From assembly GCF_050320075.1 (NCBI RefSeq), contig NZ_CP190018.1: a stretch of DNA of 64,000 bases; one strand, 5' to 3'. Made by a program: the position numbers and the translations under genes. This document shows positions 4,088 through 62,406 of the stretch, one piece after another. The stretch's first letter is position 1. Each line of letters begins with the position of its first letter. The notes below the pieces were generated by a model, which searched no databases, was not told where the DNA came from, and saw nothing but the letters and a program-made list of their open reading frames with translations. Origin of the DNA: Escherichia coli (lineage in GTDB: Bacteria > Pseudomonadota > Gammaproteobacteria > Enterobacterales > Enterobacteriaceae).

Positions 4088-4387
4088 ATGGCGCTTACAA
4101 AAGCTGAAATGTCAGAATATCTGTTTGATAAGCTTGGGCTTAGCAAGCGGGATGCCAAAGAACTGGTTGAACTGTTTTTCGAAGAGATCCGTCGCGCTCT
4201 GGAAAACGGCGAACAGGTGAAACTCTCTGGTTTTGGTAACTTCGATCTGCGTGATAAGAATCAACGCCCGGGACGTAACCCGAAAACGGGCGAGGATATT
4301 CCCATTACAGCACGGCGCGTGGTGACCTTCAGACCCGGGCAGAAGTTAAAAAGCCGGGTCGAAAACGCTTCGCCCAAAGACGAGTAA
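4088..4387 (+). CDS. ihfA: integration host factor alpha subunit
   Basis: 99-aa [55 protein letters not shown]... Confidence 0.95.
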
Positions 4388-4400
4388 TCTGATCTAACTA

Positions 4401-4430
4401 AAAAGGCCGCTTTGCGGCCTTTTTTCTTTT
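4401..4430 (+). terminator. ihfA intrinsic terminator (GGCCGC-TTTG-CGGCC + T-run)
   Basis: hairpin and TTTTTTCTTTT 14 bp after ihfA stop. Confidence 0.7.
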
Positions 4431-4487
4431 CACTGTCGAAGAGTCACCGTAAAATCAACGCCATGACACTTCAGCAGAACGGATACC

Positions 4488-29025: not shown

Positions 29026-29163
29026 CGTGTAATGGCTGCATGAAATAAACAATAAAATATAAATAACATTATCAGCCTGCTGACGGCTTGAAGAGAGTCA
29101 CAGTATCTTGTGCAACATTATTGGAAAGCGTGAGGGGCGAGGTAGCGAAGCGGAAAAATGTTA

Positions 29164-29268
29164 AAAAAAAGCCCATCGTGGGAGATGGGCAAAGACTACA
29201 CACAGCAATTCGTTGTTTCACTCAGGGGATTTCCATGCTTATAAATCAATATGTTGATTTATAACCGT
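29164..29268 (-). ncRNA. rprA: RprA small RNA (RpoS translational activator)
   Basis: minus-strand sequence ACGGTTATAAATCAACATATTGATTTATAAGCATGGAAATCCCCTGAGTG...CCCATCTCCCACGATGGGCTTTTTTT matches my recollection of rprA, including the terminator. Confidence 0.85.
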
Positions 29269-29453: not shown

Positions 29454-30566
29454 TTACTTATTCGGTTTCTCGATTTCGCCAAGTTCTTCGAGAACTTCTT
29501 CCGGTTGGTCAGTCGGCGGTGGGACTTCTTCCACCCACGCGGCAAAAAGACGCCAGGAAACGGCTAACAGAACCGGACCAATAAACAGGCCGATCATCCC
29601 GAAAGCAATCAAACCACCAATAACGCCAGAGAGAATCAGGATCAGCGGTAAATCGGCACCCATGCGAATTAACATTGGGCGGATGACGTTATCCAGCGTG
29701 CCAACCACACCGCTCCACACTAACAATACCGTTCCCCAGGTGGTATCGCCAGTCCAGTAGAGCCAGATAATCGCCGGAATCAGTACCGGCAACGGTCCAA
29801 GCTGGACAAGGCAGGAGAGGATCATTAACACCGTGAGCAAAGTTGCATAAGGTACGCCGGATACGGCGAGGCCGATACCGCCAAGCACTGCCTGTACTAA
29901 CGCTGTCACCACAACACCCAGCGCCACCGCGCGGATAGCTTGTGCCGCCAGCAGCACGGCGGCATCTCCACGAACGCCTGCCAGACGGGTTGCAAAATGG
30001 CGAATGCCTTGCGCCACTTGTTCACCGCGCCAGTACAGCAGGGCGCTGAAGAGAAGCATCAGCGCACAATGCACCATAAAGCGCCCGATATGCGCCGCCT
30101 GCCCAACGAACCAGGTGGTGGTGGTGCCAATATAAGGACGGACTTTTGCCATGATCGCCGTCCCCCCCATATCCAGCAAGTTGTGCCAGCCTGCATACAG
30201 CTTCGCGCCAATCACCGGAATGGTATTAAGCCACGCCAGATCGGGTAACGTCATGTCACCGCTGGAAATGGCTTTAATTAGCGGGCCGCTGCCGTCGACG
30301 ATACTGTTAACCAGCAAGGCAATAGGGATGATAAACACCATCACTAATAACAGCGTCATCACCAGAACGGCGAGAGAGCGGCGACCAAACATGATCTTTT
30401 GCAAACGTAACAATACCGGCCAGGTGGCGATAACCACCGTACCAGCCCATGCAAAGCCGAGAATAAAGGGTTGTACAATCCACAGACATGCCACAATCAT
30501 GATGGCTAAAAAAAGCACCGAAAGCAGAATTTGTGCGACATCCCTGGGCTGACGAACATTTACCAT
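29454..30566 (-). CDS. ydiK: AI-2E/PerM family membrane transporter
   Basis: 370-aa polytopic membrane ORF. Confidence 0.88.
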   Translation of the reverse strand: MVNVRQPRDVAQILLSVLFLAIMIVACLWIVQPFILGFAWAGTVVIATWPVLLRLQKIMFGRRSLAVLVMTLLLVMVFIIPIALLVNSIVDGSGPLIKAISSGDMTLPDLAWLNTIPVIGAKLYAGWHNLLDMGGTAIMAKVRPYIGTTTTWFVGQAAHIGRFMVHCALMLLFSALLYWRGEQVAQGIRHFATRLAGVRGDAAVLLAAQAIRAVALGVVVTALVQAVLGGIGLAVSGVPYATLLTVLMILSCLVQLGPLPVLIPAIIWLYWTGDTTWGTVLLVWSGVVGTLDNVIRPMLIRMGADLPLILILSGVIGGLIAFGMIGLFIGPVLLAVSWRLFAAWVEEVPPPTDQPEEVLEELGEIEKPNK

Positions 30567-30739
30567 AACTACTTTTCACCTTTTTTGTGCGTCAAATCGT
30601 CGACGCGACGTGAACACGCGAAACTCACCTGCATAATGATGAGCAATTTCAGCGGTTTTTAACAGGCCGATTCTGCCCTTAATTCTGATGGGCGTGTTAG
30701 AAAAAAATGTGGTACAACAACTCAGGCAACACGCAAACG

Positions 30740-30868
30740 ATTTACTCGTCGTATTTCAAGTTGCATGTGCTGCGGCTACGTTCGTTCACCCCAGTCACTT
30801 ACTATTGTAAGCTCCTGGAGTTCACTCGCTTGCCGCCTTCCTGCAACTCGAAATCCATAGAGTAAATA
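30740..30868. repeat. ERIC (IRU) enterobacterial repetitive intergenic consensus element
   Basis: contains TCACCCCAGTCACTTACT and TGTAAGCTCCTGGAGTTCAC, near-matches to the ERIC2 and ERIC1R primer sites as recalled. Confidence 0.7.
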
Positions 30869-30954
30869 AACATCACCTTTCAGTGCGCTATTGCAGCAGC
30901 CTGAAAGAATAGTGTATCGACCTACATCACAGACCGCAGGAAAGGGTCAATATA

Positions 30955-33900
30955 ATGATTCCACAGATTTCCCAGGCACCCGGCGTCGTTCAACTGGTGC
31001 TTAATTTTTTGCAAGAGCTGGAGCAACAAGGTTTTACCGGCGATACGGCGACAAGTTATGCCGATCGTCTGACAATGTCGACCGACAACAGTATTTACCA
31101 ACTTCTCCCCGATGCGGTGGTATTTCCGCGTTCAACCGCAGATGTGGCGCTGATCGCCCGTCTTGCCGCGCAGGAACGCTATTCATCGCTGATCTTTACC
31201 CCCCGCGGCGGCGGCACCGGCACTAACGGTCAGGCGCTCAACCAGGGGATTATTGTTGATATGTCCCGCCATATGAACCGCATCATCGAAATTAACCCTG
31301 AAGAGGGCTGGGTGCGCGTTGAGGCCGGGGTGATAAAAGATCAACTCAATCAGTACCTGAAACCGTTCGGCTACTTTTTTGCGCCGGAACTTTCGACCAG
31401 CAACCGGGCAACGCTCGGTGGGATGATCAATACCGATGCATCCGGTCAGGGATCGCTGGTCTATGGCAAAACGTCAGATCACGTACTTGGCGTACGCGCG
31501 GTGTTGTTGGGGGGCGATATTCTCGATACGCAACCTTTACCCGTCGAACTGGCAGAAACGCTGGGTAAAACCAATACCGCAATCGGGCGAATTTATAACA
31601 CGGTTTATCAACGTTGCCGTCAGCAACGCCAGTTAATCATCGACAACTTCCCCAAACTTAACCGCTTTCTTACCGGTTACGATCTGCGTCATGTCTTTAA
31701 CGATGAGATGACCGAGTTCGACCTGACGCGCATTCTGACGGGTTCAGAAGGGACGCTGGCCTTTATTACCGAAGCGCGGCTGGATATTACGCGCTTGCCT
31801 AAAGTGCGGCGTCTGGTGAACGTCAAATATGACTCTTTTGACTCCGCGCTGCGTAACGCGCCGTTTATGGTTGAGGCGCGGGCGCTTTCGGTAGAGACGG
31901 TGGACTCAAAAGTGCTGAATCTGGCGCGGGAAGATATTGTCTGGCATTCCGTCAGCGAGTTGATTACCGATGTGCCTGACAAAGAGATGCTCGGGCTGAA
32001 CATTGTGGAATTTGCTGGTGATGATGAGGCGCTGATTGACGAGCGAGTTAATGCACTCTGTGTGCGGCTTGATGAGCTGATTGCCAGCCAACAGGCGGGG
32101 GTGATTGGCTGGCAGGTGTGCCGCGATCTGGCGGGTGTTGAACGTATCTATGCGATGCGCAAAAAAGCTGTCGGCCTGCTCGGTAATGCCAAAGGAGCAG
32201 CCAAGCCAATTCCGTTTGCTGAGGATACCTGCGTACCGCCGGAACATCTGGCCGATTATATTGCTGAATTTCGCGCGCTGCTCGACAGCCACGGCTTAAG
32301 CTACGGTATGTTCGGTCACGTCGACGCAGGTGTCTTGCACGTCCGTCCTGCGCTGGATATGTGCGATCCGCAACAAGAGATTTTGATGAAGCAAATCTCT
32401 GATGACGTAGTGGCGCTTACCGCGAAATACGGTGGTTTGTTGTGGGGCGAGCACGGCAAAGGTTTTCGCGCTGAATACAGCCCGGCGTTTTTCGGTGAGG
32501 AACTTTTTGCAGAACTGCGCAAAGTGAAAGCGGCATTTGACCCGCATAACCGACTCAACCCAGGGAAGATTTGCCCGCCAGAAGGTCTCGATGCGCCGAT
32601 GATGAAAGTGGACGCGGTGAAGCGCGGTACATTCGATCGGCAGATCCCCATTGCGGTACGCCAGCAGTGGCGCGGTGCGATGGAGTGTAACGGCAACGGT
32701 TTATGCTTCAACTTTGATGTCCGTAGTCCGATGTGTCCGTCGATGAAGATCACCCAGAACCGGATTCATTCACCGAAAGGGCGCGCAACGCTGGTGCGTG
32801 AATGGCTGCGCTTGTTGGCGGATCGCGGCGTTGACCCACTCAAACTAGAACAAGAACTGCCTGAATCCGGCGTCAGTTTGCGGACGTTAATTGCCCGCAC
32901 GCGCAATAGCTGGCATGCGAATAAAGGCGAATACGACTTCTCACACGAAGTCAAAGAGGCAATGTCGGGCTGTCTGGCCTGTAAAGCGTGTTCGACCCAG
33001 TGCCCCATCAAAATTGATGTGCCGGAGTTTCGCTCTCGTTTTCTGCAGCTCTATCACACCCGTTATTTACGCCCGCTTCGCGACCACCTCGTTGCTACGG
33101 TCGAGAGCTACGCACCGCTGATGGCACGCGCGCCGAAAACCTTTAACTTCTTCATTAACCAGCCGCTGGTGCGCAAACTCTCGGAAAAACATATCGGCAT
33201 GGTTGATTTGCCACTGCTGTCAGTCCCCTCGCTACAACAACAAATGGTGGGGCATCGCTCGGCGAATATGACGCTGGAACAGCTTGAAGCTCTCAATGCA
33301 GAGCAGAAAGCGCGCACGGTGTTGGTGGTGCAGGACCCCTTTACCAGCTATTACGATGCACAAGTGCTGGCGGATTTTGTCCGTCTGGTTGAAAAATTAG
33401 GATTCCAGCCTGTGTTACTGCCATTTTCGCCAAATGGCAAAGCCCAGCATATCAAAGGCTTTCTTAATCGTTTTGCGAAGACGGCGAAAAAGACGGCGGA
33501 TTTCCTCAACCGTATGGCGAAGCTGGGGATGCCAATGGTGGGCGTCGATCCGGCGCTGGTACTTTGTTATCGCGATGAATATAAACTGGCGCTGGGCGAG
33601 GAACGTGGCGAGTTTAACGTCTTACTGGCGAATGAATGGCTGGCAAGCGCACTTGAGTCACAGCCAGTGGCTACAGTCAGCGGTGAATCATGGTATTTCT
33701 TTGGTCACTGTACCGAAGTTACCGCTTTGCCGGGCGCGCCAGCACAATGGGCCGCGATATTTGCCCGTTTTGGCGCGAAACTGGAAAATGTCAGCGTGGG
33801 TTGCTGCGGCATGGCAGGGACTTACGGACATGAAGCGAAAAACCATAAAAATTCGCTCGGGATCTATGAGTTATCCTGGCATCAGGCGATGCAGCGACTG

Positions 33901-34011
33901 CCGCGTAATCGCTGTCTGGCGACCGGATATTCCTGCCGTAGCCAGGTAAAACGGGTCGAAGGCACGGGGGTACGCCATCCTGTGCAGGCTTTACTGGAGA
34001 TTATTAAATGA
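30955..34011 (+). CDS. ydiJ: FAD-linked oxidase fused to 4Fe-4S/CCG domains (reported D-2-hydroxyglutarate dehydrogenase)
   Basis: 1018-aa ORF with N-terminal FAD-binding domain and C-terminal Cys clusters. Confidence 0.9.
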   Translation: MIPQISQAPGVVQLVLNFLQELEQQGFTGDTATSYADRLTMSTDNSIYQLLPDAVVFPRSTADVALIARLAAQERYSSLIFTPRGGGTGTNGQALNQGIIVDMSRHMNRIIEINPEEGWVRVEAGVIKDQLNQYLKPFGYFFAPELSTSNRATLGGMINTDASGQGSLVYGKTSDHVLGVRAVLLGGDILDTQPLPVELAETLGKTNTAIGRIYNTVYQRCRQQRQLIIDNFPKLNRFLTGYDLRHVFNDEMTEFDLTRILTGSEGTLAFITEARLDITRLPKVRRLVNVKYDSFDSALRNAPFMVEARALSVETVDSKVLNLAREDIVWHSVSELITDVPDKEMLGLNIVEFAGDDEALIDERVNALCVRLDELIASQQAGVIGWQVCRDLAGVERIYAMRKKAVGLLGNAKGAAKPIPFAEDTCVPPEHLADYIAEFRALLDSHGLSYGMFGHVDAGVLHVRPALDMCDPQQEILMKQISDDVVALTAKYGGLLWGEHGKGFRAEYSPAFFGEELFAELRKVKAAFDPHNRLNPGKICPPEGLDAPMMKVDAVKRGTFDRQIPIAVRQQWRGAMECNGNGLCFNFDVRSPMCPSMKITQNRIHSPKGRATLVREWLRLLADRGVDPLKLEQELPESGVSLRTLIARTRNSWHANKGEYDFSHEVKEAMSGCLACKACSTQCPIKIDVPEFRSRFLQLYHTRYLRPLRDHLVATVESYAPLMARAPKTFNFFINQPLVRKLSEKHIGMVDLPLLSVPSLQQQMVGHRSANMTLEQLEALNAEQKARTVLVVQDPFTSYYDAQVLADFVRLVEKLGFQPVLLPFSPNGKAQHIKGFLNRFAKTAKKTADFLNRMAKLGMPMVGVDPALVLCYRDEYKLALGEERGEFNVLLANEWLASALESQPVATVSGESWYFFGHCTEVTALPGAPAQWAAIFARFGAKLENVSVGCCGMAGTYGHEAKNHKNSLGIYELSWHQAMQRLPRNRCLATGYSCRSQVKRVEGTGVRHPVQALLEIIK

Positions 34012-34706: not shown

Positions 34707-34904
34707 TCCTGACTTGATGCCGCAATTTCGCCAAATCGACCTTGATTAACCTCCGTCCAGGTTCGATGGCCTTCTTAATACTGCTTATCTACCCGCCTGA
34801 TATTGTTCAAAAATAATACTAATCGCAGTTTGTGTTAAAACGGCGGGTTAGCTTTATGAGATTATTCTTATCGCCCCTTCAAGAGCTAAGCCACTGAGAG
34901 TGCC

Positions 34905-34975
34905 GGAGATAAGCGCCGGATGGGGTAGAAACCCTTAAGCCTGTGTCGCACAGACTTAAGGGTTTTCTTATTTCT
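34905..34975 (+). ncRNA. rydB: candidate RydB small RNA
   Basis: ydiH-sufA intergenic position where rydB is annotated in K-12; hairpin ACCCTTAAGCCTGTG/CACAGACTTAAGGGT followed by TTTTCTTATTT; 5' end and identity not verifiable from memory. Confidence 0.35.
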
Positions 34976-52635: not shown

Positions 52636-52941
52636 TCAGGCGAGTTTTGCCTGATTGATTTGACTCAGTGGCTCATTGACATCGAAAACTTTGGCGACAA
52701 CTTCCTCAACGCCGAGATTTTTCAGTCGGGCAGTATGTTTTTCCAGATAGGCAAGGGCGCTTTTTTCATCAGTGAAAAGGTAGATCCCACCGGCTTCGTG
52801 GTTCTTTTCACTTTCTGTCCATACCTTCCACAGAAAACCAGGTTCCTGATTAATCGACTCAGCAAGCGGTTCAAGCTGCTCAGCCATTGCGTCGCCAAAT
52901 GGGCCATTAAAAGCAAAATGAAGTTGTAACAAAGTTGCCAT
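52636..52941 (-). CDS. ydhR: putative monooxygenase (dimeric alpha/beta barrel)
   Basis: 101-aa ORF. Confidence 0.85.
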
Positions 52942-53048
52942 AGCGATTCTCCTTCTGATAACGCATACGAAGACAGTGTAAATCTTTTAATGTATTGGAT
53001 ACAGAGAAGAAACAGAGGGAAAAAGGAGAAGACCAGATTAAGAAAATC

Positions 53049-53125
53049 TGGTGCGTCCGAGTGGACTCGAACCACCGACCCCCACCATGTCAAGGTGGTG
53101 CTCTAACCAACTGAGCTACGGACGC
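53049..53125 (-). tRNA. valW: tRNA-Val (anticodon GAC)
   Basis: minus-strand GCGTCCGTAGCTCAGTTGGTTAGAGCACCACCTTGACATGGTGGGGGTCGGTGGTTCGAGTCCACTCGGACGCACCA. Confidence 0.95.
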
Positions 53126-53129
53126 AGGA

Positions 53130-53206
53130 TGGTGCGTTCAATTGGACTCGAACCAACGACCCCCACCATGTCAAGGTGGTGCTCTAACCAACTGAGCTAT
53201 GAACGC
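53130..53206 (-). tRNA. valV: tRNA-Val (anticodon GAC)
   Basis: minus-strand GCGTTCATAGCTCAGTTGGTTAGAGCACCACCTTGACATGGTGGGGGTCGTTGGTTCGAGTCCAATTGAACGCACCA. Confidence 0.95.
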
Positions 53207-61797: not shown

Positions 61798-61840
61798 TCC
61801 ATTTCACTCCAGACCCTAACTTCAGCTCCTGCAAAATCGC

Positions 61841-61858
61841 AAGGTAAACGTTTGCCTT
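61841..61858. promoter_or_regulatory. PurR operator (autoregulation) in purR leader
   Basis: AAGGTAAACGTTTGCCTT, good match to the PurR box ACGCAAACGTTTGCGT; a second box-like site GAAACGTTTGCTCG lies in the first codons (61756-61771). Confidence 0.6.
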
Positions 61859-62066
61859 TACACACCTTACGCACAACAAAAGTGTTGCGGTACGCCGGAA
61901 AAACGACACGGAGCGTCAGGAAGGGGTCAATGGCCAGTACGCAAATAGTGTAAGCGTGGAATTTTGGCCGATCTTGACGAAAAGGGGAAGTGGTAAAAAC
62001 ACTTATCATTATAAATGACGGGAGATTTTTTCATCACAGTGTGTAAAAATGCGTAATATCACTTTT

Positions 62067-62075
62067 TGTGTGGTA
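62067..62075. repeat. IS1 target-site duplication, left copy (TGTGTGGTA)
   Basis: identical 9-mer at 62844-62852. Confidence 0.9.
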
Positions 62076-62130
62076 GGTGATGCTGCCAACTTACTGATTT
62101 AGTGTATGATGGTGTTTTTGAGGTGCTCCA

Positions 62131-62406
62131 GTGGCTTCTGTTTCTATCAGCTGTCCCTCCTGTTCAGCTACTGACGGGGTGGTGCGTAACGGCAAAAGCA
62201 CCGCCGGACATCAGCGCTATCTCTGCTCTCACTGCCGTAAAACATGGCAACTGCAGTTCACTTACACCGCTTCTCAACCCGGTACGCACCAGAAAATCAT
62301 TGATATGGCCATGAATGGCGTTGGATGCCGGGCAACTGCCCGCATTATGGGCGTTGGCCTCAACACGATTTTCCGCCATTTAAAAAACTCAGGCCGCAGT
62401 CGGTAA
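62131..62406 (+). CDS. insA: IS1 InsA (transposition repressor / N-terminal part of transposase)
   Basis: 91-aa [46 protein letters not shown]... Confidence 0.95.

Follow-up and report, generated by a model that had tools for sequence, protein, structure and literature searches.

Is the short repeat between the divergent genes ydiK and ydiJ of Escherichia coli an ERIC element (short for enterobacterial repetitive intergenic consensus) and, if so, how did it come to lie there and what may it do to the genes beside it? These elements, also named IRU or RU-1, were reportedly described by Sharples and Lloyd in 1990 and by Hulton and colleagues in 1991. The locus was studied within a stretch of 64 kb of E. 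coli DNA that is referred to throughout as the window. An original prediction had placed an ERIC copy in a 388-bp spacer between the two genes. The spacer was located at 30567–30954 and has exactly that length, as it does in K-12 MG1655, and the gene names agree with the RefSeq annotation of identical DNA.

29454–30566, minus strand: ydiK, AI-2E family transporter, the divergent neighbor (open reading frame; RefSeq annotation of identical DNA)
30955–34011, plus strand: ydiJ, D-2-hydroxyglutarate dehydrogenase, whose leader bears the ERIC (open reading frame; RefSeq annotation of identical DNA)

Identity of the repeat

A reference set was seeded with an 18-mer of the ERIC2 primer site, which yielded 9 loci from a viral collection and 120 metagenome loci. 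Combined with ERICs that were met by chance in orthologous loci, the set comprised 101 distinct elements, 85 of which were canonical and came from other loci. The consensus derived from these 85 copies, TATACCCGTCATACTTCAAGTTGCATGTGCGTTGGCTGCGCTCGCTCACCCCAGTCACTTACTTAAGTAAGCTCCTGGGGATTCACTCCCTTGCCGCCTTCCTGCAACTCGAATTATTTAGGGTATA, is one built here and not the original 1991 consensus. When a profile of the 85 independent copies was run with nhmmer against the 64 kb window, one element was identified with a score of 112.4 bits (E = 4.8e-34), covering positions 3–130 of the 132-position model within an envelope of 30739–30869. Since the minus strand scored just 12 bits against the same profile, the orientation of the element was defined as plus.

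30741–30867, plus strand: ERIC/IRU element, 127 bp, placed by the profile search with 85 independent copies
30743–30864, plus strand: ERIC proper, TAC...GTA
30786–30826, plus strand: conserved ERIC core, a central inverted repeat whose apical loop is flanked by the ERIC2 primer in reverse complement and by primer ERIC1R

The original prediction had set the boundaries at 30740–30868, within 1 nt of the profile placement, and had named alignment to the ERIC consensus as its check. That alignment is good over the full length, with 108 of 130 positions identical (83%), as compared with a family median of 85% and a range of 60–97%; a poor match, which would have spoken against the assignment, was not seen. 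The observed length of 127 bp corresponds to the family size of ~127 bp given in PMC2229807 and PMC3184786. The core strings quoted in the prediction were recovered at 30786–30826, and this segment agrees with the ERIC-PCR primers, whose sequences were taken from published papers, at 20 of 22 positions for the ERIC2 complement and, with one gap, at 19 of 22 for ERIC1R. With 0.00 matches expected by chance, the core pattern CCCCAGTCACTTACTNNNGTAAGCTCCTGG was found once in the window, and the core-pattern and profile searches alike return a single ERIC copy from the 64 kb. E. coli genomes contain a median of 12 ERIC places each (range 2–18) by blastn.

A chance palindrome or an intrinsic terminator with no relation to ERIC would also present a hairpin in a spacer, and the hairpin itself is all that speaks for such a reading. 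It is ruled out by the profile match, and its probability is negligible. An alignment of 53 copies shows little or no variation in the core columns, the invariant core is common to ~100 metagenome and genome copies, and the T-run of a terminator is absent at the position of the element. From these results, it is clear that the spacer holds an ordinary full-length ERIC/IRU copy.

At its ends, the window copy has TT on the left (30741–30742) and AA on the right (30865–30866) where the family consensus has TA on both sides. Among 52 reference copies, TA was present on the left in 26, on the right in 29 and on both sides in 21, while TT occupied the left in 11. A shorter form of the spacer that lacks the element, the empty allele considered below, has TA at the insertion site (GATTAATC). 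The insertion may have used a TA target, as other ERICs do, although an intact TA duplication is lacking. The right arm carries the minority variant ATCCATA in place of TTATTTA, as do 4 of the 52 reference copies.

We know of no transposase for ERIC, and the copy is probably a resident, now immobile miniature inverted-repeat element. The signs of movement that were seen are the filled and empty forms of the spacer and the separate insertions in other taxa, both described below. The element type has long been known and this very copy is present in K-12 MG1655. As a result, naming it adds nothing new to a textbook repeat family.

The metagenome loci also held unusual family members. Enlarged ERICs with internal insertions of ~70–75 bp at model positions ~43, 86 and 104 were observed in L126, L145, L155, L159, L160, L165, L168, L183 and L213, and also in the orthologous locus L023 (3643–3848); the inserts share a sequence resembling GGCCTCGCCCC...GCGTTCAA. 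One locus (L138, 145–580) contains a head-to-tail tandem array of four ERICs with a period of ~126 bp. On the E. coli plasmid pH222-1 (L003, 1477–1586), an ERIC lies in the spacer between the yersiniabactin genes ybtA and ybtP.

Structure of the ERIC hairpin

The element is an imperfect palindrome throughout its length, and its terminal arms form a 26-nt inverted repeat that is 81% complementary.

30740–30765: left terminal arm of the imperfect palindrome, pairs with 30842–30867
30842–30867: right terminal arm of the imperfect palindrome, pairs with 30740–30765

The predicted fold is the long imperfect hairpin of the family with ~42 base pairs, and its stability gave z-scores of −5.3 for the plus strand and −7.6 for the minus strand. 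In an alignment of 53 diverse copies, 82.9% of cells were paired as compared with 24–42% when the partners were slid, and the covariation score was 0.220 versus 0.03–0.06 for the slid controls. Double (compensatory) changes were found in 25 of the 42 pairs, and none of 500 shuffles reached the observed values. Compensatory changes across the family include those in helices 1–3, which involve the terminal arms. The hairpin is therefore maintained in the ERIC family by compensatory change.

Transcription of the element within the ydiJ leader

Transcript 5' ends were mapped in K-12 MG1655 by Kim et al. 2012 with a method that enriches primary transcripts (PMC3415461, Table S1). The main ydiJ start could be transferred to the window since its 51-nt upstream sequence matches window 30676–30726 at every position; the evidence for it is one dataset from K-12, a strain that differs from that of the window.

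30726, plus strand: main ydiJ transcription start, 5' UTR of 229 nt, 49 reads in K-12 MG1655 (PMC3415461, Table S1)
30875, plus strand: second ydiJ 5' end, located 8 nt beyond the ERIC, UTR of 80 nt, 25 reads (PMC3415461, Table S1)
30710–30718, plus strand: putative extended −10 element TGnTACAAC of ydiJ (TGGTACAAC), 8 nt upstream of the start, conserved across Enterobacteriaceae
30731–30741, plus strand: conserved leader box ACGCAAACGAT, nucleotides +6 to +16, directly after which insertions start in many taxa

Since the main start at 30726 lies 15 nt upstream of the ERIC, transcription passes through the element in its plus orientation, and the ERIC makes up nucleotides +16 to +142 of the 229-nt ydiJ leader. 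The prediction had described ERIC copies as transcribed hairpins, and the K-12 start bears this out for the copy in the window (PMC3415461, Table S1). Like other members of its family, the copy is both intergenic, in the ydiK-ydiJ spacer, and transcribed, inside the ydiJ leader.

The TGGTACAAC block is read here as a likely extended −10 promoter element of ydiJ. A generic σ70 scan of the spacer found no site scoring 9/12; as a result, the promoter assignment rests on the published start together with conservation. Of 79 orthologous spacers, 71 keep both the −10 block and the ACGCAAACGAT box, with a nearly fixed spacing of 15–18 nt between them. When the start is included, a conserved trio of fixed spacing is seen in 71/79 Enterobacteriaceae spacers (window 30700–30741; L005–L084), comprising an AAAAAAATGTGrTACAAC block, the ydiJ start and the ACGCAAACGAT box. 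Two open reading frames that overlap the ERIC (30688–30810 and 30707–30865) begin upstream of the transcription start and were treated as chance ORFs.

Two origins are conceivable for the second 5' end at 30875, namely processing where the hairpin has its foot and initiation at a weak promoter borne by the ERIC. In the latter case the right arm would serve as an outward promoter for a second ydiJ transcript, as might be expected of a 25-read 5' end located 8 nt beyond the element, with its −50 to −1 region inside the right arm, and mapped by a method that enriches primary transcripts (PMC3415461). The scan, however, gives no σ70-like site there and, in our own reading, even the best −10 hexamers are weak candidates, namely TAGAGT, which ends 12 nt from the start, and TAAATA, with 3 of 6 positions matching. 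Since a processing site at the hairpin foot accounts for the same 5' end, donation of a promoter by the ERIC is considered rather unlikely.

A further reading makes the element a gene of its own for a small or antisense RNA and not a part of the leader. Three sub-threshold Rfam matches to small RNA families on the minus strand, within window 30702–30870, are in its favor: V_AS5 (RF02818) scored 42.7 bits over its full length (E = 5.6e-8), Ysr49 (RF02766) 29.5 bits and STnc70 (RF02069) 18.6 bits. These scores fall far under the gathering thresholds of 96, 95 and 40 bits, respectively, and a gathering-level search reached no Rfam family at the ERIC. To our knowledge, Rfam has no ERIC family, and the three families were probably built on transcribed ERIC copies, most likely those of other species. 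The published 5' ends offer a weak start directed toward ydiK within the ERIC core (window 30796, 3 reads), where all ydiK starts are weak at 2–4 reads each (PMC3415461, Table S1). Three reads are marginal and no terminator was found by the scan, so that an independent RNA gene is very unlikely and the element is best regarded as a segment of the ydiJ leader. Elsewhere in the window, gathering-level Rfam matches were to RprA, RydB, STnc550, STnc540, the Phe leader, HPnc0260 and two tRNA genes (29161–29268, minus; 34873–34933, plus; 61798–62177, plus; 4329–4487, plus; 509–633, plus; 52925–53087, plus; 53052–53206, minus).

Filled and empty alleles of the spacer

Among 5426 complete E. coli genomes, 4255 have the full 388-bp spacer (filled) and 1168 have a spacer of 213 bp (empty), the latter including the B2 strains CFT073 and ST131. 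Expressed in terms of the transcript, ~78% of E. coli have a ydiJ leader of 229 nt with the ERIC hairpin and ~22% have one of 54 nt. The original prediction had stated that the presence of such copies varies between strains. This is correct for the locus; however, what varies is not the ERIC alone. The filled allele has 182 bp (window 30743–30924) where the empty allele has 7 nt, a span that consists of the ERIC and ~60 bp to its right.

30868–30927, plus strand: single-copy segment of ~60 bp, present or absent together with the ERIC and missing with it in ST131

The additional segment occurs in single copy in E. coli and in exactly the same 4255 genomes as the ERIC. It contains a small hairpin (~30877–30907) and is bracketed by direct repeats of ACATCAC (30871–30877 and 30924–30930). 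A remnant second or half ERIC was ruled out, since the ERIC profile did not match the segment even at E ≤ 100 with filters off. Its single-copy status in E. coli also led to rejection, at the sensitivity of blastn, of the idea that it belongs to another repeat family. A simple ERIC insertion does not account for these extra 60 bp.

When the whole leader was folded, the ERIC remained an independent hairpin domain. The leader of the empty allele was unstructured, and the Shine-Dalgarno region folded alike in the two alleles.

Orthologous loci were collected from 80 GTDB species. The ST131 junction GATTAATCTCTCATCACAG is collinear with the Citrobacter sequence GATTAAATTCACAACACAG, and the empty allele is also collinear with Enterobacter spacers. 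The distance from the leader box to the ATG is 23–43 nt in most Citrobacter, Enterobacter and many other genera. Since the empty allele is collinear with these outgroups, the short spacer is the ancestral state. A deletion was rejected as the origin of the empty allele, since the filled allele lacks 10 nt that are present at the empty junction (AATCTCTCAT) and that are collinear with outgroup sequence.

Recurrent insertions after the leader box

Across the orthologous loci, anything between 23 and 235 nt separates the box from the ydiJ ATG: 23–43 nt in 42 species and 52–235 nt in 29 species. Several of these spacers contain ERICs of their own.

L043, Enterobacter sp. JUb54: ERIC in the spacer, in the orientation of the window copy
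L049, Enterobacter genomosp. O: ERIC in the spacer, in the opposite orientation
L050, record titled Chryseobacterium sp. 18061: two ERICs in the spacer
L023, Citrobacter amalonaticus S646: ERIC that has an internal insertion and lies between the −10 element and the box
L082, Yersinia similis: partial ERIC in the spacer

These copies are independent of that in the window. Inserts of 50–130 bp unrelated to ERIC are found at the same point in Salmonella arizonae and diarizonae, Citrobacter (L011, L024, L025), Kluyvera and others. A comparison of the spacer across Enterobacteriaceae, as suggested in the original prediction, reveals one in 5 of ~75 species outside Escherichia. The profile gave 13 ERIC matches over 704 kb of orthologous loci, and 11 of them fell within the ydiK-ydiJ spacer, a count that carries an ascertainment bias since the locus was chosen because an ERIC was present. 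Degenerate ERIC termini in L030 and L043 gave weak signals (E = 0.009–0.3 in a tiny search space) and were not relied upon. The L050 record is probably mislabeled or contaminated, since it encodes an enterobacterial YdiK (83% identity) despite its Chryseobacterium title.

History of the filled allele in Escherichia

The filled allele is shared by E. albertii, E. whittamii and two more lineages of Escherichia, while one further lineage of the genus is empty. Between the window and the four filled-allele Escherichia, the ERIC differs by 2–5% and the 60-bp segment by 2–7%. In the same comparison, the figure for four-fold degenerate sites in ydiJ plus ydiK is 17–42% (for the ERIC, Fisher p lies between 1e-7 and 5e-19). 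A drop in synonymous divergence is likewise seen over the initial 150 nt of each gene and, in one lineage, over 450 nt. Since divergence falls at the gene starts as well, the low divergence of the spacer fits constraint and a recombination tract alike. The spacer as a whole (30567–30954) differs by 2–5% from L005, L007, L008 and L009. One of these records, L007, is titled E. coli SCPM-O-B-8794 while its ydiK has only 91% nucleotide identity to that of the window.

The main rival to a functional role is that the element, although a genuine ERIC, is a neutral relic that sits passively in the leader, owes its survival solely to a site that tolerates insertions and has no measurable effect on expression. 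The segment past the leader box is hypervariable, as seen in the box-to-ATG distances of 23–235 nt and the many unrelated inserts; 1168 E. coli genomes do without an ERIC at the locus; and the Shine-Dalgarno region folds identically in both alleles. A neutral sequence, however, would not be expected to differ by just 2–7% between the window and four other Escherichia lineages, E. albertii among them, when four-fold sites differ by 17–42%, with the caveat that recombination could mimic this pattern given the synonymous dip at the start of both genes. A neutral relic is thus a serious possibility that we would place somewhat short of an even chance.

A more ambitious reading of the same data would take the leader site after ACGCAAACGAT as a true hot spot, across Enterobacteriaceae, for the integration of ERICs and other short inserts, and the ERIC allele as a functional leader RNA held by purifying selection, which would persist next to the ancestral empty allele as a trans-species polymorphism. 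This combination is doubtful.

Proposed effect of the ERIC on ydiJ

The joint explanation that we regard as very probable is a resident ERIC that lies within the ydiJ leader, is transcribed with it, stems from an insertion in an Escherichia ancestor and may act in cis on the ydiJ mRNA. In an ancestor of Escherichia, the ERIC together with ~60 bp of unique DNA would have been inserted into the ydiJ 5' leader just past the leader box. Transcription of the ERIC from the ydiJ promoter, with its start at 30726, gives a leader of 229 nt in place of 54 nt, and one that has gained a stable imperfect hairpin. As RNA, the hairpin may influence in cis how the ydiJ mRNA is processed, degraded or translated, and such an influence might account for the 5' end at 30875.

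A cis effect on ydiJ expression is suggested by analogy. In the reviews PMC2229807 and PMC3184786, ERICs of Yersinia are described as co-transcribed with genes and as altering mRNA stability through RNase E in an orientation-dependent manner.

The locus is of modest value in that it presents a natural pair of alleles, one with a 54-nt leader and one with an ERIC-bearing leader of 229 nt. Such a pair is well suited for testing how an ERIC in a leader affects mRNA processing and the expression of D-2-hydroxyglutarate dehydrogenase. How ERICs choose their targets or survive in them is a further question on which the locus bears, given that other genera have repeatedly gained inserts at this leader site.

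Comparison with known systems

The small RNA families V_AS5, Ysr49 and STnc70 resemble the minus strand of the window ERIC, in part over the full length; with similarity below threshold, the element is a member of none of them.

Among miniature inverted-repeat elements found in leaders, the Correia elements of Neisseria (PMC3184786) are likewise small palindromic inserts in a 5' region and can supply promoters and processing sites. The presence of a mapped 5' end at the downstream edge of the window ERIC (30875) is reminiscent of this. ERICs constitute an unrelated sequence family, and their arms are not known to act as promoters.

Another parallel is offered by the Yersinia ERICs with an influence on mRNA decay (De Gregorio et al. 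2005, summarized in PMC2229807). The window copy shares with them co-transcription with a neighboring gene, a long RNA hairpin and a defined orientation. The arrangement differs in that the Yersinia element lies between cistrons where RNase E destabilizes the upstream cistron, whereas the ydiJ copy is situated in a 5' leader with no cistron upstream.

Set against typical ERIC/IRU elements, the window copy departs in three respects: it has a degenerate TA duplication, with TT and AA at its ends, a right arm of the minority ATCCATA type (4/52 reference copies), and a link to ~60 bp of unique non-ERIC DNA. It agrees with them in its length of 127 bp, in the primer-site central inverted repeat within a full-length imperfect palindrome, and in belonging to a multi-copy family whose members are intergenic, transcribed and variable between strains. 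The element in the ydiJ leader carries every testable defining feature of ERIC/IRU with the exception of an intact TA duplication.
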